Program-made: the position numbers and the translations under genes
Notes under the pieces: model-generated
Told to the model about the DNA's origin: nothing
Seen by the model: only the letters and a program-made list of their open reading frames with translations
Database searches by the model: none
In this document: positions 5,143 through 29,743 of the stretch, one piece after another
Numbering within the stretch: position 1 is the stretch's first letter
Layout of the letters: each line of letters opens with the position of its first letter
Origin: Chloroflexota bacterium
Lineage (GTDB): Bacteria > Chloroflexota > UBA11872 > UBA12225
NCBI GenBank assembly: GCA_034437795.1
Contig: DAOTTI010000189.1
Coordinates: 16,479-80,478 of the forward strand
DNA: 64,000 nucleotides
Reading direction: 5' to 3'

Positions 5143-5233
5143 CCTAGTGCACCATCAGGCCAGCGATTTGGCATTGCCTTCCCTGGTGCGCGGGCTCGCA
5201 TTCCCAAAGAGGTCGTCTGAAACAGCACTAGGG
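5143..5233 (+). repeat. Copy A of a ~90-nt repeat bounded by an 8-bp terminal inverted repeat (cctagtgc...gcactagg). Other copies at 29138..29222 and 29654..29743.
   Basis: Read directly. ~85% identity to copy C after reverse-complementing. Lies between two convergent genes. Confidence 0.6.
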
Positions 5234-6100
5234 GCACAGTACGAGCTGACCGCCGGTGGCGTTGGTGTGGTATTCCAGGCGCTGGCCGGCGCCGGAAACG
5301 ATGATCAGGTAGCCGGGCGTGATCACCTGGGCGTACATCTGCCCCGGCTGCGGACAGCCCAGGGAGGTGTCCGGCCACTCCCGTTCCTCCACCCGCTCCA
5401 CCACGAGCTGCTCGCGCGGCACGCCGAGGCGCGCGGCCGCGTCCCGCAGCACGGCCTCGACCGCAACTCCGGCGGCGGGATCCCCTACCATTGGCGTCGG
5501 CCTCGGCGCAGGCGTCGGCGTTGGCGCAGCCGCCGGCGCACGCTCCCACTCGAACGGCGGATCGGTATTGAGCCGCTGCTGCAGGCCGCGGGGCCCGAGG
5601 AGCCACGTGCGATAGCCATCGGTGAACGCCGTGAGGTTATCGGCCTTGCGCCAGACGAGCAAGCCCCCGGTGGTACGCTGCTCCGCGTTGCCGTTGATCG
5701 GGTTGAAGCGCTCTGGCTCCAGGCAGTCCCCCACCACCTCGGCGCCGATCAGGTGGCGCAGATTGGCGAACCCGAGCACGAACCCGCAGGGCGCCTGCGC
5801 CCCCGCCGGCCAGGGCACGCCGGCAACGAGGATGGCACCGACGATGGCAGCGAGGCCCCACGCGGCCGCCCGCAGCACACGCGCCGGCCGGACCCCCGCG
5901 AGCGGGACGCGCGACGTCGCACAGAGGCTACTCCCGAGCACGACGTGCCTGGCGCGGCCGTCGGCCAGGGGGGCGCACAGCGCCGCGCAGAGGCCGCCGC
6001 GTGGGGCCTGCAGGGCCGAGGCGAACGCGCGCAGACGACGCAGGATGGCATGCGGGCGCGGCGCTCGTTGCGCCGGTCCGACCTGACGGTAGACAGCCAT
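5228..6100 (-). CDS. Secreted or membrane-anchored protein of unknown function. Its C-terminal domain is paralogous to the 4516..4980 gene.
   Basis: 290 aa with an N-terminal hydrophobic segment (AAAWGLAAIVGAILVAGV). The C-terminal 70 aa are near-identical in motif. A 70-nt stretch is near-identical at the nucleotide level to 4848..4918 in inverted orientation. Confidence 0.65.
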   Translation of the reverse strand: MAVYRQVGPAQRAPRPHAILRRLRAFASALQAPRGGLCAALCAPLADGRARHVVLGSSLCATSRVPLAGVRPARVLRAAAWGLAAIVGAILVAGVPWPAGAQAPCGFVLGFANLRHLIGAEVVGDCLEPERFNPINGNAEQRTTGGLLVWRKADNLTAFTDGYRTWLLGPRGLQQRLNTDPPFEWERAPAAAPTPTPAPRPTPMVGDPAAGVAVEAVLRDAAARLGVPREQLVVERVEEREWPDTSLGCPQPGQMYAQVITPGYLIIVSGAGQRLEYHTNATGGQLVLCP

Positions 6101-6208
6101 AGTCCGGTACGGGTATGCCGTTAGGCAAAGAGTACACTGGAACTCGCCTCAGGACGAGCGCCGGCATGGGGCACCAACACCGGGGACACCAGCAGAGGAG
6201 GGCACGCC

Positions 6209-7069
6209 GTGGTGGAACCAGAGCTGATCGCAGACTACGCCTGCCATACGGGAGAAGGGCCATTGTGGCACCCCATGGAGCGGTGCGTGTACTGGTGCGA
6301 CATCCCGCGCGGACGGATCTTCCGTTACCACCCCGCGACGGGCCAGCACGAGCAGGTATTCGCCGGAGAGCCGGTCGGCGGGTTCACCATCCAGGACGAC
6401 GGCTCGCTCCTGCTCTTCATGGCCAGGGGCGCTGTGCGCCGCTGGCGGCAGGGGGAGCTCACGACCCTGATCGACGAGATCCCGGAAGCGCGCCACTCGC
6501 GGTTTAACGACGTGATTGCCGACCCCGCGGGGCGGGTCTTCGGCGGCACCATGGCCACAAAGGATGCGCCCGGCAAGCAGTACCGCCTGGACCCCGATCG
6601 CAGCCTGCACGTCGTGATCGACCGCGTCCGCACGCCCAACGGCATGGGGTTCACGCCCGATCGGAGGCAGATGTACTTCACCGACTCGCCGGACCTGGCC
6701 ATCTACAAGTTCGATTACGACGAGCGGACCGGTGAGATCAGCAACCGGCGGGTGTTCGTCCAGACGGAGCCGGGCCAGGGCGTGCCGGACGGCATGACCG
6801 TGGACGCGGAAGGCTTCGTCTGGTCCGCACGCTGGGATGGGAGCTGCCTGGTTCGGTACGACCCCGAGGGAAGGGAAGAGCGCCGCGTCTACTTTCCGGC
6901 CAAGAAGGTGTCGAGCGTGACGTTCGGCGGCGACGACTACACCGACATCTACGTCACCACCGCCGGCGGGCACATCAAGGAGCAGGACGGGCCCCTGGCC
7001 GGCGCCCTCTTCCGGATCAATCTGGGGATCAAGGGCGTGCCTGAGTTCCTCTCCCGGATCAGGGTGTAA
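6209..7069 (+). CDS. SMP-30/gluconolactonase/LRE-family lactonase.
   Basis: 286 aa. Beta-propeller lactonase pattern (HTGEGPLWHP...RFNDV...PNGMGF...DGM). Confidence 0.8.
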   Translation: MVEPELIADYACHTGEGPLWHPMERCVYWCDIPRGRIFRYHPATGQHEQVFAGEPVGGFTIQDDGSLLLFMARGAVRRWRQGELTTLIDEIPEARHSRFNDVIADPAGRVFGGTMATKDAPGKQYRLDPDRSLHVVIDRVRTPNGMGFTPDRRQMYFTDSPDLAIYKFDYDERTGEISNRRVFVQTEPGQGVPDGMTVDAEGFVWSARWDGSCLVRYDPEGREERRVYFPAKKVSSVTFGGDDYTDIYVTTAGGHIKEQDGPLAGALFRINLGIKGVPEFLSRIRV

Positions 7070-7110
7070 GGGGCGCGCGCCACCGCTCCGTGGGGGGCGG
7101 CGAGAGGACC

Positions 7111-8271
7111 ATGAGCGATCGCGTACGGATCGGCGTCATCGGGACCGGTCTGTTCACAGACCTGATGCACCTGCCCAATCTCAAGAGCCACCCCCGCGCC
7201 GACCTCGCCGCCATCTGCGGACGCAACCAGGAACGGGCCGGCCTGCTGGCGGCCAGGTACGCGATCCCCCAGGTCTATCACGACTACCGCCGGCTGATCG
7301 ATCGCGGGCAGCTTGACGCAGTGGTCGTCGCCACGCCCGACGACCTGCATTACCCGATGGTCATGCACGCGCTTGAGGCGGGGCTCCACGTGCTGTGCGA
7401 GAAGCCCCTGACCTTGACCGTCGCGCAGGCGCAGGAGATGCTCGAGCGGGCCGAGGCGCGGGGCGTCAAGCATATGACCTACTTCACCTTCCGGTGGCTC
7501 CCGCCATACCGGTATCTCCACCACCTGATTGGCCAGGGATACCTCGGGCGTTGTTACCACGCCGAGTTCCGCTTCCTGGCCGGCTTTGGGCGCGTCCTGG
7601 CCTATAGCTGGCGGTTCGATGCGCGGCGCTCGCTCGGCGCGCTGGGCGACCTGGGGGCGCACCTGGTCGATCTGGCCCGCTGGCTGATCGGCGAGATCCA
7701 GCCGGTCGCGGCCACGCTGGATCGCTACGTTACGCGTCCGCGGCCCGAGAACGGGCGGCGGACGCGGTTCAAGCCGGCCAACGAGGCAGCGCACCTGCTG
7801 GTCCGCTTCACCAACGGCGCCCAGGGCAGCCTGCTGGCCAGCACCGTGGCGCACACCGCCGATCGTGGCCAGGAGCAGCAGCTTGTGTTCCACGGCCAGG
7901 GCGGGGCGCTGGAGGCCCGCCTGACGGGGCTCTGGGCCGAGCTCCAGGGCGCGCGCGCCACTGAGACGGCGTACAGGCCCCTAGCGGTACCGGACGAGTT
8001 CTGGGCCGGCGTGGATCGCAGCCGGCCTCCCGAGGAGCAGGTCCGCCAGGTCTTCACTCGCCAGCCGGTGGCCGACCGGCAGTTCGTAGACGCCATCCTG
8101 CACGACCGGCCCATCACCCCGAGCTTCTATGATGGCCTGAAGGCGCAGGAGGTCCTCGCCGCCGCGCTGGCGGCCGCGGCGCCATTCCCTGCGACCCGCG
8201 GGCCGGCTCGTTCTGCACCACGAACGAGACCGCCATCGCGCACAAACAAAAACAAGCCGCTCAACCGCTAG
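7111..8271 (+). CDS. Gfo/Idh/MocA-family NAD(P)-dependent oxidoreductase.
   Basis: N-terminal Rossmann motif VRIGVIGTGLF, and EKPL catalytic region. Confidence 0.85.
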   Translation: MSDRVRIGVIGTGLFTDLMHLPNLKSHPRADLAAICGRNQERAGLLAARYAIPQVYHDYRRLIDRGQLDAVVVATPDDLHYPMVMHALEAGLHVLCEKPLTLTVAQAQEMLERAEARGVKHMTYFTFRWLPPYRYLHHLIGQGYLGRCYHAEFRFLAGFGRVLAYSWRFDARRSLGALGDLGAHLVDLARWLIGEIQPVAATLDRYVTRPRPENGRRTRFKPANEAAHLLVRFTNGAQGSLLASTVAHTADRGQEQQLVFHGQGGALEARLTGLWAELQGARATETAYRPLAVPDEFWAGVDRSRPPEEQVRQVFTRQPVADRQFVDAILHDRPITPSFYDGLKAQEVLAAALAAAAPFPATRGPARSAPRTRPPSRTNKNKPLNR

Positions 8272-8404
8272 ACGCGGGAGCAGCTTCGAGGAAGAAGGTA
8301 GGTTGGAAGCATCTTCACCATACGCCCGCCGTATAAGAACGGCATAGGAGCGGATAAGAACGCCAATAGAACCCCGTCAGAATTCGGTTGGTGCGCCCCG
8401 CCAC

Positions 8405-8570
8405 GCGCGGGCCAGGGTGAGGGCTCCTCCAGTCCCCTCTCCCTGTCAGAGACGGTCCGGGGACACGCGGCACGCCGCCGAGGCGGCCTTGAGCCCCCTC
8501 TCCCTCTGGGAGAGGATCAGGGTGAGGGCTCCTTCAGTCCCTTCTCCCTGCGGCAAAGAGCCAGGGTGAG
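8405..8570. repeat. Cluster of REP-like intergenic hairpin repeats (CCCTCTCCC-loop-GGGAGAGG followed by GGGTGAGGGCTCC), about three units.
   Basis: Direct reading. The same unit recurs at 16345, 23885, 41385, 44738 and 52713-52872. Confidence 0.7.
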
Positions 8571-8594
8571 GGTCCCGCTGGCCAACAAGCTAGC

Positions 8595-9614
8595 CTACGC
8601 CGCCCTACCCAGGTAGCGGTCGCGGCCATCCACCAGCGCCCGCAGCTTGGCGTCCGCGACCGACCGCGGGAGCATCCACAGGCCACAGTCGGGGTTGGCG
8701 TATTGCACGCGCCCGGGGCCCAGCACATGCTCGGCGTGCTCCAGGCGGCGCGCCACCTCATCCGGATGCTCGATCTGCAGGTCCTTCACGTCGATGACCC
8801 CGACACCGATGCCGATCTTCGGGTCCAGGTCCTTGAGGTACTCCAGCTCCGCGTAACCGCGGCGGGCGAACTCCAGCAGGACGTGATCGGCGCCCAGGCG
8901 ATTGAGAAAGCCGACCAGCTGCTGATAGTGCCCCTTCTGGATCGACTGGCCGCCGTAGTTGCCAAAGCACAGGTGCAGGGCCCGCTCCCTGGACGCCGGA
9001 ACGCCCTCCAGCACGCGATTGATCGCCTCCGCTGCCAGTGACGCATCCTCGGGGTGGCCGGTGAGGTTGGCTTCGTCCACCTGGATCACGTCCGCGTCGA
9101 CGTCTTTGACCTGCTCGTGCAGCACCTCGGCCAGCGCCAGGCACAGCGCCTGCCGGTCGCGATAGTGCCGGTCCAGCAGCACCTTGGCCAGCATGTAGGG
9201 GCTGGTCACGGTGAACTTGATCCGCCGGCTGGTCAGGGCTCGCAGCGGGGCCGCGGCGGCGGCCAGGTTCAGGGCGCCTGCCCCCAGGGGGCCCGTCACC
9301 ACGCCCGCCGGCGCCACGCGATACGCCATCCCTTCCTGGCGAGCGAAGTCGGCAGCGTCGACGGCCATGATCCGCGTGCTGACCCCGTCCATCCGCCCGA
9401 CGAAGTAGTCGATCATCCCGTTCGTCTCAGGATGATTGACGTCAAAGCGAGACAGCTCCCCGTCCGAGAGGACGTCGATCCCCGCCAGCTCCTGCGTGCG
9501 GACGACGACGATGGTCGCGTCCCGCAGAGTGTCCCGCGTAGGATAGACCCGCAACCACTCGGGAGTGGGGTAGCTGCCAATGACGGTGGTCTGTATCGTG
9601 GCTGCTGCGGACAT
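8595..9614 (-). CDS. Cobalamin-independent methionine synthase family protein (MetE C-terminal-domain-like, short form).
   Basis: 339 aa. IGSYPTPEW...DGE and CGLW motifs typical of the MetE/UROD-like family. Confidence 0.75.
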   Translation of the reverse strand: MSAAATIQTTVIGSYPTPEWLRVYPTRDTLRDATIVVVRTQELAGIDVLSDGELSRFDVNHPETNGMIDYFVGRMDGVSTRIMAVDAADFARQEGMAYRVAPAGVVTGPLGAGALNLAAAAAPLRALTSRRIKFTVTSPYMLAKVLLDRHYRDRQALCLALAEVLHEQVKDVDADVIQVDEANLTGHPEDASLAAEAINRVLEGVPASRERALHLCFGNYGGQSIQKGHYQQLVGFLNRLGADHVLLEFARRGYAELEYLKDLDPKIGIGVGVIDVKDLQIEHPDEVARRLEHAEHVLGPGRVQYANPDCGLWMLPRSVADAKLRALVDGRDRYLGRAA

Positions 9615-9819
9615 GGCCTGCTCGTCCTACGTCATGTACGTGCTGGTCCAACGTGGCATCCATGGTGCATCCGCCGGGTTCCTACCGATGGCCCCAACCT
9701 GGGAGAAGGTGACGTGCCTTGCCGCGCGTACCTCTAGCGCACAATTCCTCACGAGCGGTGTGCTCATTGCATCGCGTCCACCGCGGTCCAGGACGCGGCC
9801 CGGCATTCTCCACGAGCGG

Positions 9820-9960
9820 AGCCCTTACCCTAACCCTCTCCCACAGGGAGCGGGAATACACAGTGCTCTGCCAACGGGAGGGGAATACACAGTGCTCTGC
9901 CAACGGGAGCGGGAAGGCATCGCCGATGGTGCATCACGGAGGGTAAGGGTAGCGCGCACA
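9820..9960. repeat. Long imperfect hairpin element (ccttaccctaaccctctccc ... ggagggtaagggtagcg) containing a 29-nt direct tandem duplication (gggaatacacagtgctctgccaacgggag x2).
   Basis: Direct reading of the inverted flanks and the tandem unit at 9852-9909. Confidence 0.6.
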
Positions 9961-9990
9961 GGGGGCGAGCGGCGCGGCTGCCGGAGACGT

Positions 9991-10205
9991 ACGCAAGGGT
10001 CCAGATGACGCCCCGCCACGGCCCGCGTTCCCCCTCTCCGTGTCGGCACTGGAGCGGCGTGGGCCCCGCGGATCACACCCTCATGCCATTGCCCTCGTTC
10101 CCCTCTCCGTGTTGGAGCGGGGGTGGCGGGGCGAAGCCGCACGGTGGGGCCGGGTGGGGCAGGGGTGCGGCGCGGCCCCGGCCGAAGGGGGTGAGGTCGC
10201 TCCTC
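9991..10205 (-). repeat. Composite ~200-nt dispersed repeat, copy 1 (contains CCCTTCGGCCGGGGCCGCGCCGC). Second copy at 23986..24160.
   Basis: Shared blocks of 20-30 nt with the 23986-24160 region in inverted orientation. Overlaps the 3' end of the endonuclease V ORF. Confidence 0.6.
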
Positions 10206-10888
10206 TCTCCCAGCGCGGCCCCGAACGGCAGCGGGAGCCGGCCGCCGGCGGCGTTGTGGGCCTGGCGCTGGGGCTCGGGCAGGCGGTAGCGAGTGGCGCA
10301 GCTCAATACGAGCCGCACGGCAGTCGGCAGGTCGACGCGATGCCCGATAGAGACATAGAGGGGCTTCACTCCCGGCCGCGTGCGCACCGCCGCACCGACG
10401 ACCTCACCGCGGTCGAGGATCGGCGCGGTGGCGCCTCGCTCGTCCCCGAGGGGACCGTGGCGGCCGACCAGCAGGGACTTCGCCGAGCCAATAGTGGGGA
10501 TATCTAGCCACAGTCCCAGGTGCGAGGCGATGCCGAGGCGCCTTTGGTGGGCGATGCCCTGCCCGTCCACGATCAGCAGGTCCGGCTTCAGGCGCAGCTT
10601 CGCGAACGCCTCCAGGATGGCCGGCGCCTCGCGGAACGAGAGCAGGCCAGGAACGTATGGGAAGCGGGTCGGCTGCTCCACCACGGCCACGTCGAGGAGC
10701 TCCAGGTCCGGGTAGCTCAGCACGGCGATCGCGGCGCGGGTCACGTCGGGCGCGGGGAAGCCGGCGTCCACCCCGGCCACGCGCCGCACCTCGCCAAACG
10801 CGTTCTCACGGATGACGCGGGGCGCCAGGCGGCGCTGGATGGCCATTGCCTCCTCCGGCGTCACGTCCCAGCGATGTAGTTCAGACAT
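10073..10888 (-). CDS. nfi: Endonuclease V (deoxyinosine 3' endonuclease) with a ~45 aa C-terminal extension encoded by the adjacent repeat.
   Basis: DGQGIAHQRRLGIASHLGLWLDIPTIGSAKSLL core. The ORF is ~45 aa longer than typical because the stop lies inside the dispersed repeat. Confidence 0.8.
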   Translation of the reverse strand: MSELHRWDVTPEEAMAIQRRLAPRVIRENAFGEVRRVAGVDAGFPAPDVTRAAIAVLSYPDLELLDVAVVEQPTRFPYVPGLLSFREAPAILEAFAKLRLKPDLLIVDGQGIAHQRRLGIASHLGLWLDIPTIGSAKSLLVGRHGPLGDERGATAPILDRGEVVGAAVRTRPGVKPLYVSIGHRVDLPTAVRLVLSCATRYRLPEPQRQAHNAAGGRLPLPFGAALGERSDLTPFGRGRAAPLPHPAPPCGFAPPPPLQHGEGNEGNGMRV

Positions 10889-11045
10889 GGCTCGAGCCAG
10901 GCTCTTTCACACGGGCCGGCGCGACGGCGGGCGCCCGTAGTGGCGCTGCCCCGCCGCCGCAGGCCGGCCGCTACCGGCGGACCGCGCCTGCCTTGACGTA
11001 CGCGGCGCGATCCGGCTCGCCATCGCCGTCTCGCTGGTGGCGCCG

Positions 11046-12188
11046 TTAGCGGCGGATCTCATTCGCCCTGATGTACTCCCAGTTAATGTCCTGGCCCAGG
11101 CCGGGGCGGGGCGACACGTGGACGTAGCCCTGCTCGTCCATCGGATCGTCGAGGGCGTTGAGCCACGGCGCCGGCTGCTCGTAATCGAGGAAGGGGTGCA
11201 GCAGGCCGCGCTCGTAATACTCACCGGGGATCCCCATGGCGCACAGGCAGTGGAGGTTCCCCGCGCCGCCGCCGTGGATCTCCAGGCGAACGCCGTGCGA
11301 TTCGCACAGGTGGGCGATCTTCATCACGGGGGTGATGCCGCCCACGTCGCCCACGCCGGCACGGCTGATATCCGACGCGCCCCGCACGATCCACTCGGCG
11401 CGGGTGAACATCTTGCCTTCGGCCGTCTCCGGCCCGACCACGGGGATGGACAGCTGCTGGGCCAGCCAGACGTACGACGAGATGCTGTGCTCGGCCATCG
11501 GCTCTTCGAACCAGTAGTAGTTGAGCTTCTCGAGCTCCTTCCCGATGTAGAGCGCCTCCTCGCGGCTGTAGTAGTGGTAGGAGTCGAGCATCAGCACCAT
11601 GTCGTCGCCGACCGCCTCGCGGACAGCGCGGCACACGGCCACGTCCAGCTTGGGATTGGGCGCGCCGGGGATGGGGGGCATGATGGGGTGGATCTTGAAA
11701 GCGGTGTAGCCCCGGCTCCGGCAGGCCACGGCAAAGCTGGCGTAGGCCTCCGGCGAGTTCAGGCCGCCTTCCATGTCGTCACCGCACATCGTGCTGGCGT
11801 ACGCCTTCACTCGGTCTCGATAGGCGCCCAGGAGCTTGTAGACCGGCTGGTTGAAGTAGCGTCCGGCCAGGTCCCACAGGGCCATATCCACCACGCCAAT
11901 GACGCGGTCGGACAGCATCCCCAGGTTCAAGCGCTGCCATTCCCGTAGGCGCTGCCAGAGCTTCTCGCGGTAAAACGGATCCTCCCCCAGGAGAGCCGGC
12001 TTGACCACACGCTGGATCACCTCTGGACTGGCGCCGAAGGCGTAGCCCTCGTGGCCATCGTCGGTGACGATCGTCACCAGGCACTGCCTGGCGTCATGCT
12101 CAGGGCCGGGGTGAGCGTGGCCCTCCTCATCCCGAACAATCCTGGACTGGTAGTGGAACAGGGTGGTGCGGACGTCGGCGATCTTCAT
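11046..12188 (-). CDS. Enolase-superfamily enzyme (mandelate racemase / muconate lactonizing family; sugar-acid dehydratase-like).
   Basis: ATG at 12188 (MKIADVRTT). MR/MLE N-terminal capping and TIM-barrel motifs. The upstream 390 aa of ORF 11046..13364 is antisense to the HD gene and was rejected. Confidence 0.8.
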   Translation of the reverse strand: MKIADVRTTLFHYQSRIVRDEEGHAHPGPEHDARQCLVTIVTDDGHEGYAFGASPEVIQRVVKPALLGEDPFYREKLWQRLREWQRLNLGMLSDRVIGVVDMALWDLAGRYFNQPVYKLLGAYRDRVKAYASTMCGDDMEGGLNSPEAYASFAVACRSRGYTAFKIHPIMPPIPGAPNPKLDVAVCRAVREAVGDDMVLMLDSYHYYSREEALYIGKELEKLNYYWFEEPMAEHSISSYVWLAQQLSIPVVGPETAEGKMFTRAEWIVRGASDISRAGVGDVGGITPVMKIAHLCESHGVRLEIHGGGAGNLHCLCAMGIPGEYYERGLLHPFLDYEQPAPWLNALDDPMDEQGYVHVSPRPGLGQDINWEYIRANEIRR

Positions 12189-12329
12189 GACGTGACTGTA
12201 CCCAGTCGTGCGGCTGGCACGGCGCGCGCCGGCGCGTGACGTCGTGATCGACCGCCCGCGCGTGCCTTCGGGAGGCCTCCCCCGGCGTAGCGCGCGCTGC
12301 GCCCCCGCCTGCGCGTTATCATCCGCCAC

Positions 12330-12896
12330 ATGGCACGCACGTTGACGCGCGATGAGGCATGGCAGATCCTGACCGAGTTCACCCAGGCGCCGGCGCTGAT
12401 CCGCCACGCCCTGGCCGTCGAGGCGGCGATGCGGGCCCAGGCGCAGCGCTTCGGCGAAGATCCAGAGTACTGGGGCATCGTCGGCCTGCTCCACGACTTC
12501 GACTTCGAGCGCCATCCGACGGCAGACGAGCACCCCTTCGCCGGCGCGCAGATCCTGCGCGAGCGGGGGTACCCTGAGCTGGCTGAGGACATCCTCTCGC
12601 ACGCCACCTACAGCGGGGTCCCTCGCGATACCGCCCTGCGCAAGGCGCTCTACGCCGTAGACGAGCTGACGGGGTTCATCACCGCCGTGGCGCTCGTCCG
12701 CCCCACCAAGAGCCTCTCTGATGTCGAGCCGTCGTCGGTGCGCAGGAAGATGAAGGATAAGGCCTTTGCCCGCGCCGTGAACCGCGAGGACATCATCAAG
12801 GGGGCGGAGGAGCTGGGCGTGGACCTGGACGAGCACATCCGCTTCGTCACCGAGTCGCTCAAGCCGGTGGCGAAGGAGCTCGGCCTCAATCCCTGA
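12330..12896 (+). CDS. HD-domain metal-dependent phosphohydrolase.
   Basis: 188 aa. H...HD...D motif (ALAVEAAM...GLLHDFDFERH). Confidence 0.7.
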   Translation: MARTLTRDEAWQILTEFTQAPALIRHALAVEAAMRAQAQRFGEDPEYWGIVGLLHDFDFERHPTADEHPFAGAQILRERGYPELAEDILSHATYSGVPRDTALRKALYAVDELTGFITAVALVRPTKSLSDVEPSSVRRKMKDKAFARAVNREDIIKGAEELGVDLDEHIRFVTESLKPVAKELGLNP

Positions 12897-12916
12897 TGCA
12901 CGCGGATGGTCGTGCA

Positions 12917-12990
12917 CAAGCTGGGGCGACACCAAGCTGGGGCGACACCAAGCTGGGGCGACACCAAACTGGGGCGACACCAAGCTGGGG
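12917..12990 (+). repeat. 16-nt tandem repeat (caagctggggcgacac) x about 4.5, ending 8 nt before the start codon of the next gene.
   Basis: Direct reading. Lies between the HD gene stop (12896) and the dehydratase ATG (12999). Confidence 0.8.
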
Positions 12991-12998
12991 AGGCACAC

Positions 12999-14135: not shown

Positions 14136-14315
14136 GGACGCGGCGAGAGTGGAGGCGGCCGGCGCTCCCTATGCGGGGCGTATCCAGCGCGCTCCTTCCG
14201 GCCGGCCGGCGCGGGGGGGAGCAGCGCCGGCACCCCGGAGGCATCCCGCCGCGCCACCATGGAAGCGGTTCGCCTCCACCCAAGCCTGCCGGTCCTCCGG
14301 GGCCGATGAGTAGTC

Positions 14316-21093: not shown

Positions 21094-21205
21094 GGCGAGC
21101 CATCGGCGAAGGGCTGGCGCCCGATCCCGCACCCGCCACGACCACGAGAGCACGAGTTGACCCATCAGCCAAAAGACCCAGGTACAGGCACAGGTACAGC
21201 AGCTC

Positions 21206-21658
21206 ATGGGCCGCTACTTCGATGAGCTGACCGAGGGCGAGTCGTTCACCAGCCCGGCGCGCGTGGTCACGGAAGCCGACCTGGACGCCTTCATCCGGCT
21301 CACAGGGGACGATAACCGGCTCCACACGGACGACGCGTTCGCACAGGCGAGCGGGTTCCAGCGCCGCATCGCGCACGGGGCGCTGGTGGTGAGCCTGGCC
21401 ACCGGCCTGGCGTGGCAGACCGGCCTGCTCACCGATACCACGATGGCCTTCCGCTCGATTGAGAGCTGGAAGTTCACTGCCCCCGTCTATCCTGGAGACG
21501 CGATCACGCTGCGCGGGCGCATCGCCGAGTGCCGCGCATTGCCGCGCCTGGGCGGCGGACTGGTGCGGTTCGATCTGGAGGTAGTCAACCAGCGTGAGCA
21601 GGTGGTGAGCAGCGGCAGCCTGCGGATGCTGATGCGCTCCCGGCCTGCGTCGCCATGA
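21206..21658 (+). CDS. MaoC-like (R)-specific enoyl-CoA hydratase / hotdog-fold dehydratase.
   Basis: 150 aa. NRLHTDDAFA...GFQRRIAHG hydratase-2 motif. Confidence 0.8.
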   Translation: MGRYFDELTEGESFTSPARVVTEADLDAFIRLTGDDNRLHTDDAFAQASGFQRRIAHGALVVSLATGLAWQTGLLTDTTMAFRSIESWKFTAPVYPGDAITLRGRIAECRALPRLGGGLVRFDLEVVNQREQVVSSGSLRMLMRSRPASP

Positions 21659-21745
21659 GCTGGCCCGGCGGGGGACGGCGGGCCTTGCACCGCCTGGCAT
21701 GCTGAATGCGAGGAACGGACCACAGGACCACGGAAGGGAGCGAGC

Positions 21746-22150
21746 ATGGCCGAGACACAGGTGGAACGCAAACTACCTAACGACCAGTGGGATGGCGGCT
21801 GGGTAGCCGAGGCGAACGAATGGAAGCCCCGCCCGCGTGATCGCGTCATCGGCGGGATCGAGTGGCTGGCGCGCATGTCCGACAAGGCCCGCGCCAAGGC
21901 GAGAGGCACCATCGGCGCGTACATCTATCCCTGCCCGGCCGACCGGCGCCTGCTGGAGGCTCTACAGATTGACGCCGAGCTCTTCCAGCAGATCGCACTG
22001 CAGGCCAGCAACGACGACGAACTGGTCGAGGCGGTACGGGAGACGAGCCCCACGATCCGCACAGGCACGTTCCACTTCACCCGCCGGCCGGCGGGCGCGC
22101 AGATGTCGCCCGGCGGCCAGCCTGGCCAGCCGCCACACCAGCCGGCATAG
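21746..22150 (+). CDS. DUF5069-family protein (paralog of the 15833 gene).
   Basis: Shared motif block with 15833..16294. Confidence 0.65.
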   Translation: MAETQVERKLPNDQWDGGWVAEANEWKPRPRDRVIGGIEWLARMSDKARAKARGTIGAYIYPCPADRRLLEALQIDAELFQQIALQASNDDELVEAVRETSPTIRTGTFHFTRRPAGAQMSPGGQPGQPPHQPA

Positions 22151-22433
22151 CGGGCCGGCATAGCCGTCATAGCGGGCCGGCAATGCCACGCGCTGCGGCT
22201 TGCACATGCCGGTAGCGTCTTGGTTCATTCCGGACTCATCCGGAGACATCGCTCCGCCCGCGCACAGGCCACGTCCTATGGCATGCAGCCGCCGGTGGCC
22301 TTGCCCGGCGCGGCGCACCGTTCCCTCTCCCTGTAATCGTCCCGCCTCCGCTAGGCACCCGCGGCGAGAGGTAAGGCTCGCTACTCGCTACTCGCCACTC
22401 ACTACTTCCGCCAGGAGCGGGCGTAGGCGAGGC

Positions 22434-23789
22434 TCACGTGTGCACCGCGTCCGCCTCGTGGGAGCGCATCATCGTCGGGTCATTGCGCCGCGGGTCCTGC
22501 GGGGCCGCCTTCATCTCATCGCCGTCGGCCATCATGGCCATCGGCATCGGCTGGCCGCCGTCGGGCCCTGAGGCGGGGCGAGGCTGGTTGGCGGCGCAGG
22601 GCGTGCCGAACCTGGGCAGGCCGAACGGCAGATGAGTCCAGCCCCGCGCGAGAATGTGCAAGTGGTTGGCTGGCTCAGTGCGGCCCTTCGAGCCCCACAT
22701 GGTGAAGGAGCGGGCGTTGGCGTAGTGGCAGACGAGCGCGCGCCGGAAGCGGTTCCTGGAGCGGTTGCTGTGCGAGCGGTGCAGGATATGGCCGCCGAAG
22801 AAGATCACGTCGCCCGGCTCGGCAATGCCCGGCACCTCGCGCCCGGGATACTTGGCGGCGATCCGCGAGAGCGTGTTCAGCTCAGTGTCCATGTGGCTGA
22901 CGTGCTCCACCACCATCAGGTCACGCAGATTGGAGTGGTTCTGCGTGATGCGATCCTCGGTGGGGTAGATGGGCTCGTGCTGCGAGCCCACGGTGAACCA
23001 GACGCACCCGTTCTCCTCATCCGCGCGGTCCACGGCGATCCAGGCCCCGCAGAGCGTATCCGGGTAGGTGGGGATGTAGTAGGAATCCTGGTGGTAGCCC
23101 TGGCCGGCCCCGCCCGGCGCCTTGATGAAGAACATCGTCTGCATCGCCATCACGTCCGGGCCGATGAGCGCCTCCAGCACGTCCAGCACCCTGGGGTGGA
23201 GCAGATAGCGCTCCTCGATCTCCAGGTGCCGGTGGAGCATGTGGATGCGCAGGTAGCGGCGCTCGATCTCTTCGATCGACATGCCGGGGGGCGGGGGCTC
23301 CAGACCGGGGACGTTGACGCGGCCGAACATGAGGTCTTCGGAATGCCGGATCAGCTCCTCGATCTCGTCGGAGTTGAGCAGACCCTTCACGATGAGAAAG
23401 CCCTGCTCGTGGAAGCGGACGTACTCTGAGACCGAGACGTGGTAGCGCTCCCGCTGCTCCGAGAAGTCGGTCGCAATGCGTTCAGGGCGCAGCCATTGCT
23501 GCGCTACCGGCTCCGCCGGCGCCGGCCCTACCGGCGTAGCGCCGATCACCGACCTTGGGGCTGGTGCCGGCAGGGGCGGCGCCAGCACGCCGGGGGCGCC
23601 ATTCCTGCGCGCCGGCCGTGACGACGGCGGGGCGCCCATCGCGCCCATGGCCTCGCTCGCGCTCATGCTCCCCAAAGCGCCCGTGGTCTCCATCGCGCGC
23701 ATGGCCTCCATGGCGCCCATGGCAGCACCACTCGCCGGCTCACTCCCTGTCGTACCAGACATGTCCTGCCCTCCGCGTTCGTCTTTCAT
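22434..23789 (-). CDS. Phytanoyl-CoA dioxygenase (PhyH) family Fe(II)/2-oxoglutarate oxygenase with Met-rich N- and C-terminal extensions.
   Basis: HQD...H facial triad region (GQGYHQDSYY). N-terminus AMGAMEAMRAMET, and C-terminus MPMAMMADGDEM. The true start among the several Met codons is uncertain. Confidence 0.7.
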   Translation of the reverse strand: MKDERGGQDMSGTTGSEPASGAAMGAMEAMRAMETTGALGSMSASEAMGAMGAPPSSRPARRNGAPGVLAPPLPAPAPRSVIGATPVGPAPAEPVAQQWLRPERIATDFSEQRERYHVSVSEYVRFHEQGFLIVKGLLNSDEIEELIRHSEDLMFGRVNVPGLEPPPPGMSIEEIERRYLRIHMLHRHLEIEERYLLHPRVLDVLEALIGPDVMAMQTMFFIKAPGGAGQGYHQDSYYIPTYPDTLCGAWIAVDRADEENGCVWFTVGSQHEPIYPTEDRITQNHSNLRDLMVVEHVSHMDTELNTLSRIAAKYPGREVPGIAEPGDVIFFGGHILHRSHSNRSRNRFRRALVCHYANARSFTMWGSKGRTEPANHLHILARGWTHLPFGLPRFGTPCAANQPRPASGPDGGQPMPMAMMADGDEMKAAPQDPRRNDPTMMRSHEADAVHT

Positions 23790-23985
23790 ATCCGCGTTAC
23801 GGTAACACGTCTGTCGCAGGCACGCATCCTGTGGGGTGAGTAGGGGTGCAACCAGTTCTTCCCGACGCGCACTCTTGAGTCCCGTCTCCCATAGGGGGAG
23901 GGCGATGGCTCCGCCATTCGGGAAAACCGGCTGCGCGCGGTGAGCAAGGGTGCACGCAGAACTTCCGGATCAGCCGGTGCAGGGA

Positions 23986-24160
23986 ACCTTACTCCCTTCG
24001 GCCGGGGCCGCGCCGCTCCGGGATGCCAGCCCTCACCCCTGGCCCCCCTCCCGCGTGCGGGAGAGGGGGACGACGGCCACCGCCGTGCGGCTTGGCCCCG
24101 CTGCCTCCTTTCCGTGTCGGAGGGGGACACGGGCCATGGCGCGGCCCGATCCGGATCTTT
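23986..24160 (+). repeat. Composite dispersed repeat, copy 2 (see 9991..10205).
   Basis: Shared 20-30-nt blocks. Confidence 0.6.
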
Positions 24161-24275
24161 CGGGCACGCCCGGCGAGTAGACTGAGCGAAGCCGGCGCCC
24201 ACCGTGTCCCTTGGCCCCACCAGACGCCGGCCAGGGAGAGGCGCCCGAGCTGGCTCAGCCGTGGAGGCCAGTCAG

Positions 24276-24674
24276 ATGCCGCCTGCCCCGCCTGATCTCG
24301 TCATCCTGCTACGGTTGGTGGTGGCCCTGGCGCTTGGAGCGGCCATCGGCTGGGAGCGCGAGGAGGCGCGCAAGGCGGCCGGACTGCGCACGCACATGCT
24401 GGTCGCCCTCGCCGCCGCGCTGTTCGTCGCTGTGGGAGACGCGTTCGTGGACCGGTTCGCGGCGCAGGACGCCCAGTCCGTGCTCCGTGCCGACCCCGTC
24501 CGCATCATTGAGGCGATCGTCACCGGGGTGAGCTTTCTGGGCGCGGGCGTGATCTTCGTCCGCCGGGGCCGCGAACGAGTGATCGGGCTCACCACGGCCG
24601 CGTCTCTGTGGGCCACGGCTAGCCTCTGTTCTTGCGGTACTATCGCCGCATGCAGACGTACGCCGGCACTGTGA
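24276..24674 (+). CDS. MgtC/SapB-family membrane protein (short form).
   Basis: [10 protein letters not shown] and [12 protein letters not shown] motifs. About 133 aa from the MPPAPP start. The 3' end overlaps the start of the next gene. Confidence 0.65.
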
Positions 24675-26275
24675 ACGCCCCAGAGTTTCCAGCGGGCCTG
24701 GACTGGATCAACACCAGCCGGCCCATCCGTCTGGCCGACCTGCGCGGGAAGCTGGTCATCCTGGACTTCTGGACCTTCTGCTGAATTAACTGTCTGCATG
24801 TGCTCCCTGGTCTGAGGGAGATTGAGCAGCGCTACCCCGATCGCGTGGTCGTGATCGGTATTCACTCGGCCAAGTTCCCCGAGGAGCAAGCGACGGAAGC
24901 GGTGCGCCAGGCCGTGCGCCGGCACAACGTCCGGCACCCTGTAGCGAACGACCGGCACTTCCAGGTCTGGCAGCAGTACGCCTGCCGCGCCTGGCCGACG
25001 CTCATGTTCATCGACCCGCGGGGCAAAGTGATCGGCCGGCACGAGGGTGAGTTCGAGACGGATCAGCTGGTGCGCGTGGTGGACGCGATGCTGCAGGAGT
25101 TCGAGGCCGCCGGCTGGCTCCAGCCGGGCGTGATTGAGTTCGGTGTAGCAGGGGCGGCGGCCCAGCCGGCGCCGGAAGGGACCGGCCCGCTGGCCTTTCC
25201 AGGCAAGGTGGCGGTGGACGGCAGGGGGCGCGGGCACGTCCTGATCGCCGACAGCAACCACCACCGCCTGGTGATCACGGGCCTGCAGGTGATGGACGGG
25301 GCGGTCCACCACATCGTGGGCGGTCCCGAGCCAGGCCTGGCCGATGGCCCGCCGGACCAGGCCCGTTTCAACTGGCCCCAGGGTATTGCCGTCGATCCGC
25401 GCACCGGCGTGGTCTTCATTGCGGACACGGAGAACCACTGCATCCGGCGTCTTAGCCCGGATGGAGGGCGGGTGACGACAATCGCCGGCACAGGGCGCCC
25501 GGCCCGCATGCGCGGCACGGGCGGTCGCGCGCAGGAGACCGATCTCTCCAGCCCCTGGGACCTGGCCTTTCTCCCCGCTCCGGATGCGGGGCCGCCGACG
25601 GCGCCAGGCTCGCACCAGGACCCCCAAGACGACCGCGGGCTCCTGTTGATCGCCATGGCGGGCACGCATCAGATCTGGGCGCTGGACCTGGCGGCAGGCA
25701 CGATTGGCCCGTACGCGGGCACTGGGCGCGAGGCGCTGGTCGATGGCCCGCGGCGCGAGGCCTGCTTCGCGCAGCCTTCCGCGCTCTCGCTCGATAGCGA
25801 GAACTGGCGCCTCTTCGTGGCCGACAGCGAGACGAGCGCCATCCGCGTCATCGACCTCGCCTCGGGAGAGGTGTCCACCCTCATCGGCGCCGGCCTGTTT
25901 GAATTCGGTGACGTGGATGGCCCGGCGCAGGAGGCGCGTCTGCAGCACCCGCTGGGCGTTTGCTACTGGCCGGACGACCCGCGGGGCTCGTCCGTGCTCA
26001 TCGCCGACACCTATAACCACCGCATCAAGCGCCTGGACCTGGCGCGCCAGGAGGTGCGCGCCTTCGCCGGCGCCGGACCTCCGCCCGGATATGTCGATGG
26101 CCCCGCGCCCTCGGCCAGGTTCAACGAGCCGGGCGGGCTGGCGCTGGCGAGAGGCAGGCTCTTTGTGGCCGATACGAACAACCATCGGGTGCGGATGGTG
26201 GACCTGGCATCCATGGCGGTCAGCACCCTGGCGGTCGACGAGCGCCGGCGCGCGCACGATGAGAAGGAAGAATGA
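24650..26275 (+). CDS. Thioredoxin-like (redoxin) plus NHL-repeat protein (NHLRC2-like). It has an in-frame TGA at 24782-24784 at the first Cys of the CxxC motif (FC-TGA-INC). Either a selenoprotein (UxxC) or a nonsense-disrupted gene.
   Basis: The frame is continuous from ATG 24650 ([54 protein letters not shown]...) through to 26275. Thioredoxin-fold motifs lie upstream of the TGA and six NHL blades downstream. Confidence 0.7.
24803..24820 (+). promoter_or_regulatory. SECIS-like hairpin (ctccc-uggucuga-gggag) starting 19 nt 3' of the in-frame UGA. The apical loop contains GGUC.
   Basis: Direct reading. A GGUC apical loop at about +28 from the UGA resembles the E. coli fdhF bSECIS geometry, as I recall it. 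Confidence 0.45.
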
Positions 26276-26389
26276 AGAAGGCAAAAAGAAGAATGAAGAG
26301 TGAAGAAGGCGGACGGTGGGAGGGAGGCAGTGTATTAGGGGAGGCGGCGCTGGAAGGGATGACGCGGCTGGGGGAGCTGGAGTAGCGGC

Positions 26390-27145
26390 TCAGGCCACCT
26401 GGGTAGCCACCAGATCGACCTGCAGGCGGATCTCGTCGACCACTGACAGAACCACCGGCACGCGCGGGGGAACCATCCCAAAGTGGCCGAATGGGAACGA
26501 GGTGGTGGCCGTGCCGGTCAGGCTCGGCCCGTCGCGTCTGGCCCTGGCGTCCCAGGTAATCTCCCGTTGCACACCGTGGATGGTCATTAGGCCGGTCAGC
26601 GTGAAGCTGTATTCCCCTGCTTCCGGCAGGGGATTGGGCAGCCCGCCGGCATGCGTGGGCACGAACTCGGCCAGCGGGTACTGGTTCACCGCCAGGGTGT
26701 TGCGCTTGATGTACCCGTCGCGCAGGGCATCGTCGGTACGCAGGTCCCGTAGATCGACCGTGATCTTCGACTGCTCGGCGACAATACTCCCGTCGGCGCG
26801 CAGCACCAGCTGTCCGGTGACGGCGGTCGTGGTGCCGACGGCGTCGGTCGGGAATTGCAGGCGGGCCAGCTGCTCGCGAACGCGGAAGGTAGCCTTTGAC
26901 TGGCCTGGGACTACCTGGAATCGGACGCTGCCCGCAGGCGGAGGAGCGGTCTGGACCGTCGGTGAGGGCTGAGGAGATGGGGCAGGCGTCTGCGCCGGCT
27001 GGGCAGGGCCGGTGGTCTGCGCCCGGGCGGGAGTGGGCGATGCTTCTGGCACGGCCGCCCGCCCGCCGACCGTACCGCAGGCGGCCGGCAAGGGAGCGAG
27101 AAGGAGCAAGAGCGCTGGGCGGCGCCGCAACGGCTGTCCAGCCAT
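26390..27145 (-). CDS. YceI-family (polyisoprenoid-binding) lipoprotein.
   Basis: Signal peptide with LAPLPAACG lipobox-like. YceI-like beta-barrel motifs (KATFRVRE...TGQL). Confidence 0.75.
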   Translation of the reverse strand: MAGQPLRRRPALLLLLAPLPAACGTVGGRAAVPEASPTPARAQTTGPAQPAQTPAPSPQPSPTVQTAPPPAGSVRFQVVPGQSKATFRVREQLARLQFPTDAVGTTTAVTGQLVLRADGSIVAEQSKITVDLRDLRTDDALRDGYIKRNTLAVNQYPLAEFVPTHAGGLPNPLPEAGEYSFTLTGLMTIHGVQREITWDARARRDGPSLTGTATTSFPFGHFGMVPPRVPVVLSVVDEIRLQVDLVATQVA

Positions 27146-27559
27146 ACTCGCCGATACAGCGCAAGCCTAGCAGACGAAGGTGCCCCGCCTACAACCGGCG
27201 CCGCGCCGCCGGCTCTCGCACCGGTACCGGCACGCGTGCGGGCACCGGCCTCGGCTCGGAGCCGGGGAACAGGAGACGGCGCAGCAGGTCAAGCAGACGC
27301 TCCGGCCAGGTCTGCACCTGGGCCATCGCCGGCTCCAGCGACGTGCGGGCGGGCGGCGCGCCGGGCATCCAGCTAGATGAGTTGAGGTGGCCAGCAAATC
27401 GCATCATACCGCTCCCGTTGAGGTGCCCCGCCATAGCATACGGCGCGGAGGCCGGTCTGGTTGCCTGGCTAGGCCTCTTGGCAGCGACCCATGCAGAGCG
27501 CGTGCCGCCGGCGTCGGCTTAACAGTACTTTGGCGCGATGTAGGCTTTCCGGAGTTCGT

Positions 27560-28330
27560 CGGAAGAGGCTAGCCCTGCAAATCGTCGTTGGTGACCTCGA
27601 GAGCGGCGCGCTGGAAGCGTTGGTGGCGCAGGTCCGAGACGTGTTCCCGCGGTCCCAGGCAGGGGTGCGGAAGGGGACGCAGTACCTGCTGGGATTGGCC
27701 TCGGACCGGCCGCGCAAGAACGCGGCGCGGATGGCGGAGGCCCTGCCCGGCGTGACGCTGGAGCAGCTGCAGCCGTTCCTGGTGGACCGCCCCTGGGGCG
27801 CCGAGGCGCTGGACCGGCGCCGGCTCGACCTGGTGGGGCTGGGCTGGTCGGCCCCCACGACCGACGCGCTCTGGATCGACGACACGTTCGACGACACGGA
27901 GCTGCCCAAGCAGGGCAAGCAGTCGGTGGGGGGCAGCTGGGCACTCCTACGGGTTGCTGGGCACTCCTGCGGGTTGCTGGGCACTCCTACGGGTTGCTGG
28001 GCACTCCTACGGGTTGCTGGGCACGACCGCCAACGGCCGGCCCATCGTCACGGCGCACGACACCGATCCGTGGCGCGACTGGCCGGTGGGCACCCCGCTC
28101 TCCCTCCCCGAGCGGTGGGCCGACGACGGCGCGCGGCGGCGGGCGGCGCGGGTGCCAGAGGACGTCGTCTTCCAGACCAAGCCGGCGTGGGCGCTGGGGC
28201 TGCTCGACCGGGCGCAGGCGGCGGGGGTGGCGCACGTGGCGGTGACGGCCGACAGCGCCTACGGCGACATCCCCGACATCCTCGCCGGCCTGGAGGACCG
28301 TGACCCCGTGACGAGCCCTCCGTCGTGCAG
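27560..28330 (+). pseudogene. IS701-family (DDE) transposase remnant, frameshifted by a 20-nt tandem repeat expansion.
   Basis: N-terminal block [43 protein letters not shown]...[20 protein letters not shown] matches the IS701 Tnp N-terminus. The continuation ...[52 protein letters not shown] is in another frame, after the repeats at 27937-28025. Confidence 0.7.
27937..28025 (+). repeat. 20-nt tandem repeat (ctgggcactcctRcgggttg) x about 4 inside the IS701 transposase remnant.
   Basis: Direct reading. The length is not a multiple of 3. Confidence 0.8.
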
Positions 28331-28539
28331 GTCAGCAAGCCCTTTGGCGTCCGGTTGTCAGCGGCGGTGGTCGCCGTGGCGGGGCGTTCCATCCCGCCTG
28401 GCCGGCGGCCCGGTCGCTAGCGCAAGGACGGCACGGTGCCCGAGGCCCGAGGCGCCACACGGCGGCCGCGGGCGTCCCCGTACCAGGGGCCCACATCCCA
28501 CGCAGGTAGCTCCGTAGTCGACGGCTGTAGACGGCGGCG

Positions 28540-29133
28540 ATGACGGACGCGGTGCCCGACGCGCGGTGGGAGCGGGTCACCGTGCGGGAGAGCGGGGAGC
28601 AGGGGGCGCGGGGGGCGCGCGCGTCCCAGCGGCTGGTCTGCCGCGTGCGGGTCCACCGGGCGCAGGGGGATGTGGTCCTGGAGGCGAATTCCAGCACCTC
28701 TTCCAGCACGTCTTCCAGCGCGGGTCCACCGGGCGCAGGGGGATGTGGCCGGCCCCCGGACCGGCCCCCAAGGCTGGCGCCGCGCCACGCCGGCGGGCCA
28801 CCGGTGGTGTACGACGCGGCGACGCGCGAGCGCATCCTGCGCAAGTTCCGGCGCCCGCCGGATCGGGAGTGCGAGGGGACCGCCCCCTGGTCGCTGACGA
28901 CGCTGCCGCGGGCGCTGCGTCGCGCGCCGGACGGCCTGCCCATGGTCAGCACGTGGACCATCCTCCAGACGCTGTGGGAGGCGGGGTACACCTGGCAGGC
29001 GCGTCGCACCTGGTGCCACACCGGCCTCGTCCTTCGCAAGCGCCAGGCGGGCGTGGGCGCGGTGACCGCCCCCATGGCCCCCGGCGCGCTCGGCGCCCCT
29101 CCGTCGAGGAACGGCTCTGCGCATGACAAGTGA
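28540..29133 (+). mobile_element. IS630/Tc1-mariner-like transposase N-terminal (HTH) fragment. No DDE domain follows.
   Basis: [57 protein letters not shown] resembles the IS630 Tnp DNA-binding region. Confidence 0.45.
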
Positions 29134-29137
29134 CCCA

Positions 29138-29222
29138 CGAGTGCACGATCCGGCCAGCGGTTTGGCATTACCTTCCGTAGGTACGGGAGCTCACATCGTC
29201 GAAGAGGTCGTCTGAAACAGCA
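29138..29222 (+). repeat. Copy B (degenerate, lacks the terminal inverted repeat) of the ~90-nt repeat family.
   Basis: ~70% identity to copy A over 85 nt, with a shared 3' block gaagaggtcgtctgaaacagca. Confidence 0.55.
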
Positions 29223-29360
29223 AAGGCCCGACCGGGGCGGGGACGGTGTCGCTTGGACCGACGACTGGCTGGCGCAGGCGCGGGACGTGAGCCGGGCGAC
29301 CGTCGAGCGGGGTCGACGGCAGGACCGGCAGTGTGTGACCGTGGGTGGGACGCGGGGCTG

Positions 29361-29512
29361 ACGCGCGCCCGCGCCCGCTGCCACGCCCACGCATGTGCGA
29401 TCGAGCGGCACTATGCCGGCGCCTTCCCCGTCTGGCTGGCGCCACGTCTACGCACGTGCGATGGAGCGATCTCGTGCAGCACGGAGGCGTGCGTGCTCGG
29501 GCCACGCCCACG
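29361..29512 (+). repeat. Three degenerate ~28-nt direct repeats (gccacgcccacgcatgtgcgatcgagcg) at an exact 61-nt period, with unrelated ~33-nt spacers. CRISPR-like architecture, but with no cas genes and non-identical repeats.
   Basis: Repeat starts at 29361, 29422 and 29483. The spacers share no similarity. Confidence 0.5.
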
Positions 29513-29653
29513 CATGCGCGACGGGGCTGGGAAGGCTCACCTGATGGCCACCGTGGGGCGCGCGCCGCCGGCAGGGCACCCGCGGCGGACGTGGCGCCGG
29601 CTGGCCAGCACGCTCGTCGCTGTGGCGCCGCTGGCGCCGGCGGATGCCAGCTG

Positions 29654-29743
29654 ACCCTAGTGCTGTCGCAGGCAACCTCTTCGGGAATGCCAGCCCGCGC
29701 ACAAGGGAAAGCCATGCCAGGTCGCTGGCCTGATGGTGCACTA
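29654..29743 (-). repeat. Copy C of the ~90-nt repeat family (9-bp terminal inverted repeat ccctagtgc...gcactaggg), inverted relative to copy B.
   Basis: Reverse complement aligns to copy A at ~85%. Confidence 0.6.

Follow-up and report, generated by a model that had tools for sequence, protein, structure and literature searches.

In the 64,000-nucleotide stretch of DNA that was analysed (the window), a pair of paralogous genes, 4363-4980 (+) and 5228-6100 (-), converge and share 87.5% identity over their last ~120 bp. Copy A of a short repeat sits between their stop codons and directly follows a tandem of TTGAACC heptamers (Table 1). Two further copies, B (+) and C (-), lie in inverted orientation with 438 nt between their bodies (29223-29660) and flank a three-unit array with a period of 61/60 nt (29380-29521), the geometry of which is CRISPR-like (a repeat of ~21-27 nt and unique spacers of ~34 nt). 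Transposase remnants are found close by. A decayed IS701-like gene with the Pfam domain DDE_5 (27491-28517) is located 0.6 kb from copy B, and 5 bp before B, at 29133, is the end of a truncated IS630-like ORF, whose similarity to HTH_32 is weak (E=0.003) and does not reach the Pfam cut-off.

The original prediction, made from the letters of the window, had described three ~90-nt copies at these sites, with A and C ~85% identical, B and C inverted ~430 bp apart around the array, and A between the paralogues behind the heptamer tandem. Our data agree with each of these points. A family profile searched with nhmmer recovered exactly 3 copies in the 64-kb window (E 1e-25 to 1e-29; next match E = 0.18), BLASTN gave 87.8% identity over 90 nt for A-C and 83% for A-B, and the setting of copy A was confirmed by gene coordinates and TRF. 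The peptide by which the repeat had been noticed is indeed present in the conceptual translations of all three copies (GKAMPNRWPDGAL in A, GKAMPGRWPDGAL in C and RKVMPNRWPDRAL in B).

Table 1 Coordinates of the repeat copies and their flanking features (window positions unless a contig is named)
Feature	Position	Strand	Remarks
Copy A, whole with duplications	5144-5231	+	A/B subfamily
Copy A body, 80 bp, TGCACCATCAGG...CTGAAACAGCA	5148..5227	+	nhmmer E=2e-29; absent from the orthologous L020 junction
Copy A left target-site duplication, CTAG	5144..5147	+	Read from sequence; L020 has a single CTAG, 3028-3031
Copy A right target-site duplication, CTAG	5228..5231	+	Read from sequence
TTGAACC heptamer tandem	5117..5142	+	Target flank outside the element; TRF 5119-5138
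Copy B, whole with flanks	29138-29226	+	
Copy B degenerate body, 81 bp	29142..29222	+	83% to A; duplication no longer recognisable
Copy B flanks	CGAG 29138-29141, AAGG 29223-29226		
Copy C, whole with duplications	29657-29744	-	
Copy C body, 80 bp	29661..29740	-	C/D subfamily; 96% to D, 86% to A
Copy C inner target-site duplication, CTAG, side facing B	29657..29660		Read from sequence
Copy C outer target-site duplication, CTAG	29741..29744		Read from sequence
Copy D	contig L017, 10564-10485	-	Another contig, same organism; flanks TTAG/TTAG

A fourth copy, D, was reached through a spurious ORF (P0001) using the concatenated six-frame translations of the element as the query, which brings the copies to n=4 at 3 unrelated intergenic loci in ~98 kb of the organism's DNA. 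Identities over the 80-bp body are 86% for A-C, 83% for A-B and 96% for C-D. The copies form two subfamilies, A/B and C/D and, judging from the identity of C and D, one subfamily has recently amplified. The same protein-style search with all four copies (E<=10) returned nothing further. No additional copies were found in ~6.7 kb of extension beyond each end of the window, the fetched loci yielded none beyond A and D, and the contigs of the more distant homologues P0004 and P0005 lack a copy. An ENA contig (L010) breaks off inside copy A, as assemblies typically end at repeats.

Pattern scans with GGCCAGCGNNNTGGCATN{28,38}AAGAGGT in the genome_contigs and metagenome_contigs collections returned only chance matches (nhmmer <=15 bits). 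The window's own copies were also not returned, so these collections appear not to contain this organism; the pattern was in any case too strict, as copy D reads GGCCAGCA. Three scans of viral contigs gave nothing real, and a BLAST search for distant plasmid matches gave a single chance match. Small hairpin repeats of another family, CCCTCTCCC-N-GGGAGAGGG, also occur in this organism.

The body of the element begins with TGCACCATCAGGC... and finishes with ...GCCTG(C/A)(G/A)ACAGCA. Together with their flanks, copies A and C start with (C)CTAGTGC and finish with GCACTAG(G); B reads CGAGTGC...GCA-AAGG and lacks the matching ends. The ends of A and C and their loss in B agree with the original prediction. 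An imperfect terminal inverted repeat extends inwards, matching at 10-11 of the 20 terminal positions, and the body as a whole is a loose palindrome. Copy A is self-complementary at 46/80 positions, a score that 0/500 shuffles matched or beat; the corresponding shuffle counts are 4/500 for B, 11/500 for D and 40/500 for C. Dyad symmetry over the whole body reaches significance in A, B and D but is weak in C. The G + C content of the element is 57-64% as compared to 69% for the window. At 80-81 bp it is too short for any transposase and has no coding capacity, and its several open frames result only from high G + C. That the element is a piece of a protein-coding gene was considered and rejected, as its peptides match only P0001.

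The decisive result is provided by a metagenome contig from a relative (L020), which matches the window at ~91% DNA identity across the flanking genes. The L020 junction reads ...TTGAACCTGCC-CTAG-GGGCACAA, with a single CTAG and the element absent, while the window junction reads ...TTGAACTTGGC-CTAG-[80 bp]-CTAG-GGGCACAG; minus 84 bp, the window is colinear with L020 through the junction. These data show a filled-versus-empty polymorphism with exact boundaries at site A. The empty L020 site could formally represent a precise deletion between two CTAGs in the relative's lineage. The TTGAACC tandem, with more units in L020, adjoins the empty CTAG there. In the window, the minus-strand gene has its TAG stop (5228-5230) inside the right duplication, and the duplication restores this codon such that the protein end (…LVLCP*) is unchanged.

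Direct repeats flank the three intact copies, CTAG/CTAG in A and in C and TTAG/TTAG in D; the flanks of B are degenerate. The D flanks form a direct repeat (TTAG...TTAG) rather than an inverted one (TTAG...CTAA) and, co-varying in this manner, behave as a target duplication should. The duplication is most simply 4 bp, YTAG, the length being set by one informative copy, D, as A and C fit a TA or YTA duplication equally. CTAG is also ~four-fold under-represented in the window (46 seen versus 180 expected from base composition); thus, chance does not account for two copies having CTAG on either side. As the direct flanks of copy D reveal, the 8-9-bp terminal inverted repeat originally described can be partitioned into the true ends TGC/GCA, which at 3 bp constitute the only perfect inverted repeat, the palindromic target duplication CTAG, and target context. 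In all three intact copies GGNCA lies directly 3' of the right duplication, an extended and asymmetric target context.

Prokaryotic MITEs are defined as short elements (<500 bp) that have no transposase gene, carry target-duplication direct repeats and terminal inverted repeats of ~4-30 bp, are scattered in several copies through a genome and have a cognate autonomous IS whose matching ends allow it to act in trans (PMC10969869). The family described here is below 500 bp, has no transposase gene, is flanked by direct repeats and is present in dispersed copies. Based on four copies and one empty site, we consider it likely that the family is a MITE on which an IS5- or IS701-like DDE transposase, one that duplicates 4-bp targets of the YTAR type, acts in trans. 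The suggestion in the original prediction of a MITE-like non-autonomous element is upheld by the filled/empty polymorphism, the target duplications, the dispersed intergenic copies and the lack of coding capacity. The shortness of the perfect inverted repeat (3 bp) and the asymmetric GGNCA context weigh against this reading. In the proposed mechanism, a transposase whose gene lies elsewhere in the genome would bind both ends and cut the element out, the element would enter a YTAG tetranucleotide via a 4-bp staggered cut, and repair of this cut would leave the tetranucleotide duplicated on either side. The DDE transposase that we infer to mobilise the element would belong to the IS5 group or to IS701. 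An autonomous IS with the ends of the element was found neither in the window nor in any fetched locus, neither end occurs elsewhere in the window at <=3 mismatches, and the decayed IS701-like gene and the truncated IS630-like ORF yielded no ends resembling those of the element. A function for the host is improbable.

The closest precedent is MITEPsy1, which derives from ISPsy2 and is found in Pseudomonas syringae pv. phaseolicola. It is a 100-nt MITE from an IS5-family element that transposes in vivo and duplicates 4 nt, CTAG or YTAA (PMC3189936), and the two families are alike in size (100 nt versus 80 nt here), in being non-coding and in the CTAG target with its 4-nt duplication. The location of MITEPsy1 in intergenic DNA, within other mobile elements and at gene 3' ends (PMC3189936) we count as a further likeness. 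However, inspection of the MITEPsy1/ISPsy2 ends, GGAAGGTCTGAAAAAGCC (PMC3189936), against TGCACCATCAGGCCAGCG and TGCTGTYKCAGRCRACCT here revealed no resemblance. The inverted repeat of MITEPsy1 is also longer, 18 nt compared to a 3-bp perfect repeat here, its parent IS is known, and its host is a pseudomonad as opposed to an uncultured high-G + C Chloroflexota-like bacterium. IS701-family elements make duplications of exactly 4 bp (PMC2266710), the length favoured here, and the DDE_5 pseudogene near B belongs with this comparison, but the IS701 end consensus, ---YACT-Y--YR (PMC2266710), has no clear match to TGCACCATCAGG.

If the repeat were instead an IS630/Tc1-mariner-type MITE, with a target like that of RUP/Correia, only TA would be duplicated and the element would read GTGCACC...CAGCAC with a 4-bp GTGC/GCAC inverted repeat. 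CTAG, with TA duplicated, is the target classically used by IS630, and TA within NTAG does flank every intact copy, with the truncated IS630-like ORF ending just before copy B. We nevertheless regard this explanation as unlikely because T precedes TA on both sides of copy D, so that a TA duplication needs an independent C-to-T change in the last base of the element that by coincidence matches the left flank, whereas the 4-bp reading needs zero mutations and leaves symmetric ends; moreover, the upstream sequence of the IS630-like ORF contains nothing resembling the element's ends. MITEs mobilised by IS630 and elements of the Correia type are ~100-150 bp, extragenic and hairpin-forming, and they occupy TA-containing sites with duplication of TA, as opposed to what is most simply 4 bp (YTAG) here. 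An extragenic palindrome of the REP/REPIN kind, dispersed by a RAYT (an IS200-like single-strand Y1 enzyme), in which a hairpin and flanking tetranucleotide are recognised and no true target duplication arises, is very unlikely. The body of A does fold as one long hairpin (-37 kcal/mol, z=-2.6), the element is extragenic at gene 3' ends, another small hairpin family is present in the organism, and ERIC and REPIN elements are likewise imperfect palindromes of ~80-130 nt at gene ends that fold into long hairpins. Yet here the flanking tetranucleotide is duplicated and co-varies (CTAG/CTAG, TTAG/TTAG), and the empty site retains exactly one. The element also has no conserved GTAG-type head, its halves are only ~55% alike, unlike two well-conserved REP units, nothing points to conservation of its structure, and the genes called in the fetched loci include neither a RAYT nor a Y1 transposase.

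The original prediction had also proposed a small structured RNA, and RNA genes or cis-acting 3'-UTR hairpins with CCTAGTGC/GCACTAGG as the closing stem would be in keeping with the stable fold of copy A on either strand (z about -2.5). MITE transcripts are themselves known to form hairpins, some of which yield sRNAs (PMC10969869). The four copies speak against an RNA, which we view as extremely improbable: compensatory changes number 0 among 23-27 predicted pairs, the paired-cell fraction (84.8%) equals that of the shuffled control (84.9%), and C, D and B fold no better than shuffles (z -0.4 to +0.5). In addition, the subfamily substitutions TT-to-CC and AA-to-CG disrupt the TTTGG/CCAAA helix, copy A showed neither a promoter-like nor a terminator-like site, and the supposed closing stem takes in DNA that is present at the empty site. 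Rfam gave no gathering-score match in the whole window and, near the copies at E<=10, only a chance match to AS1890 of 19 bits next to B. The two C-to-T end changes of copy D would become G-U wobbles on the A(+) strand; their interpretation as RNA wobble covariation was rejected because a direct TTAG duplication accounts for both as one event. Lastly, there is a slight chance, again very small, that inverted B and C form a composite transposon with a 438-bp cargo, a MITE-borne mobile mini-array, or that some copies were co-opted as 3'-UTR RNA hairpins. It is simpler to assume that B and C inserted independently in a junk region, given that a separate CTAG/CTAG duplication flanks C and the outer flank of B is CGAG.

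As a probable MITE, the family is an ordinary kind of selfish DNA and opens no new biological question. Its main value is for annotation: it accounts for places where contigs break and for spurious ORFs of this lineage, for example the 241-aa "hypothetical protein" P0001. It is also a marker for insertion polymorphism between strains. Bacterial MITEs for which an empty site is documented and the 4-bp YTAG duplication is defined are few, and the family adds to them a case from a high-G + C, Chloroflexota-like bacterium.

Copy A sits in the gap separating the stop codons of two convergent paralogous genes and immediately follows a TTGAACC tandem, in agreement with the original prediction. A 90%-identical orthologue of gene 5228-6100 (P0002) led to L020, a contig from another metagenome that is syntenic with the window and whose flanking genes are about 91% identical. 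In L020, the point where the TTGAAC tandem meets the gene end reads TTGAACCTGCC-CTAG-GGGCACAA, and the corresponding window junction is TTGAACTTGGC-CTAG-[TGCACC...80 bp...CAGCA]-CTAG-GGGCACAG. Removal of 84 bp from the window results in a colinear alignment with L020 through the insertion point, and no trace of the element was found in L020. Therefore, A is an 84-bp insertion composed of an 80-bp body and a duplicated CTAG. In gene 5228-6100 the insertion struck the TA of the stop codon TAG; the encoded protein is unchanged because the CTAG duplication restores the TAG.

This locus shows further variation. The ~160-bp stretch separating the convergent paralogues (4981-5142; L020 2830-2989) has opposite orientations in the window and L020, presumably through recombination between the 3' ends of the genes, which are inverted and 87.5% identical, and the TTGAAC(C/T) heptamer tandem contains ~3.5 units in the window (5117-5142) and ~7 in L020 (~2975-3021). 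The paralogues (4363-4980 and 5228-6100) share a ~90-residue C-terminal module (…EWxDTSLGCPQPGQMYAQVITPGYLIIVSG…LC[PR]*), for which a Pfam search gave no match; other Chloroflexota-type proteins carry it behind many different N-terminal domains (among them peptidase, glucose dehydrogenase and LRR).

A profile built from A, B and C, the three copies originally proposed, recovered only these three in the window (E values of 1e-25 to 1e-29), with the best further match at E = 0.18. The expected ~85% identity between A and C proved to be 86–88%, and B, described as degenerate, shares 83% identity with A, its ends having decayed. Six-frame translation of the element followed by a protein search returned one spurious 241-residue ORF (P0001), and contigs carrying it revealed a fourth copy, D, in a 1-kb intergenic region with an ABC-transporter ATPase gene on one side and a methyltransferase-like gene on the other. 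C and D form one subfamily (96% identity), A and B another. Pattern scans of two sequence collections, with a pattern that was too strict, gave chance matches only; as even the window's own copies were not recovered, neither collection appears to hold this organism.

Features of the repeat family and its surroundings. Locations are in the window unless a contig is named.
Feature	Location	Strand	Remarks
Copy A	5144-5231	+	body 5148-5227
Copy B	29138-29226	+
Copy C	29657-29744	-
Copy D	L017 10564-10485		contig of the same organism
IS701-like transposase pseudogene	27491-28517		Pfam DDE_5, E=1e-18; decayed, adjoins IS630-like ORF and copy B
Truncated IS630-like N-terminal ORF	28540-29133		after IS701-like pseudogene
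Three-unit array	29380-29521		period 61/60 nt, between inverted B and C
Second-family hairpins	L017 4563-4586, 10089-10112, 10784-10804; L020 183-203; L006 5540-5702

The 8-9-bp terminal inverted repeat proposed for the family holds only in part. The real ends are TGC/GCA (3 bp), and the remainder is the YTAG duplication plus target context (C...G). The duplicated CTAG in A and C resembles an inverted repeat because it is its own reverse complement. D, by contrast, is flanked by TTAG and TTAG, a direct repeat, and not by the TTAG...CTAA expected of an inverted repeat or stem; the proposed repeat is therefore mostly duplicated target. CTAG is four-fold rarer in the window than expected (46 seen, 180 expected), so its presence on both sides of two copies is specific. 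Past TGC/GCA, 10-11 of 20 terminal positions match, and a loose dyad symmetry extends over the whole body, covering 46 of 80 positions in A (a score that none of 500 shuffles attained) and being weaker in C (40 of 500 shuffles). GGNCA, found immediately 3' of the right duplication in all three intact copies, is target context, since the empty site has it too and at A it belongs to the coding sequence; with n = 3, it may point to a longer preferred target.

The original prediction offered two readings, a small structured RNA or a MITE-like element. Folding beyond its own shuffles was seen for A only. RNAalifold of the four copies gave a covariation term of +0.12 with no compensatory pair, and A's minimum-free-energy hairpin, counted over the alignment, had 84.8% paired cells compared to 84.9% in the shuffled control, with no double-sided changes among its pairs, a weak test with four sequences. 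The subfamily substitutions TT to CC (body 20-21) and AA to CG (73-74) disrupt TTTGG/CCAAA and neighbouring pairs. Rfam gave no match at gathering score and, at E<=10, no overlap with A or with C and a single 19-bit chance match at the edge of B; neither a promoter-like nor a terminator-like site was seen at A. Thus, as far as four sequences can test it, covariation, whose absence the original prediction named as refuting, is lacking, and an RNA gene is unlikely. The MITE-like reading, by contrast, was supported by the precise empty site, and the anatomy matches the MITE definition of PMC10969869: the element is small, does not code for protein, has short, imperfect inverted ends and a duplicated target, and is present in several copies.

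The 4-bp YTAG duplication agrees with the YTAR rule of the IS5 group, of which MITEPsy1, a 100-nt IS5-family MITE that transposes in vivo, duplicates CTAG or YTAA (PMC3189936); IS701-family elements produce target duplications of exactly 4 bp (PMC2266710). We infer that a DDE transposase of IS5-group or IS701-like kind would move the element in trans. No ends like those of the element were found at the local IS701-like or IS630-like remnants, and neither end recurs elsewhere in the window. An IS630-type element with a TA duplication is improbable. A RAYT/REPIN-type element, to which the dyad symmetry might point, is also unlikely given the 4-bp duplication and precise empty site. REP-like hairpins form a second small repeat family (CCCTCTCCC-N3-9-GGGAGAGGG), present on other contigs of the same organism, its relative and an unrelated Planctomycetaceae MAG and absent from the window.

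B and C lie within IS debris, and the segment 27491-29133 is a graveyard of mobile elements. The IS701-like pseudogene is divided between two frames and contains an interrupting tandem repeat of 20 nt x 4.4 (27936-28024), and the IS630-like ORF contains a perfect 29-nt direct repeat (28647-28675 / 28720-28748). As predicted, B and C are inverted and flank the array, in which a conserved part of ~21-27 nt (GCCACGYCYACGCAYGYGCGA), 86-95% identical, alternates with unrelated ~34-nt spacers. This geometry is CRISPR-like, though there are only three decayed units, with no Rfam CRISPR-DR match, no further window copies and no viral-contig match. Just upstream of an 820-residue ORF, at 30060-30194, is a G+C-rich repeat with 8/16-nt periodicity (GCGTCCCC-like; ~17 units, 61-68% matches).

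The window has a G+C content of 69%, and the nearest named homologues of A's neighbouring gene are from Chloroflexi/Chloroflexota MAGs. Exact-protein look-ups located the same strain, at >=99.98% identity, in JGI 3300039521 and ENA ERZ23499679. One ENA contig terminates within A, suggesting that the assembly broke at a repeat. At 12917-12990 is a 16-nt tandem repeat (CAAGCTGGGGCGACAC x 4.6), a strain-level VNTR: the JGI contig, otherwise identical to the window, carries a different number of units. Extrapolation from three unselected copies in about 77 kb gives a very uncertain estimate of tens to low hundreds of copies per genome. Nothing suggests a host function. The element constitutes a new MITE family, of a well-known kind, in an uncultured Chloroflexota-like bacterium.
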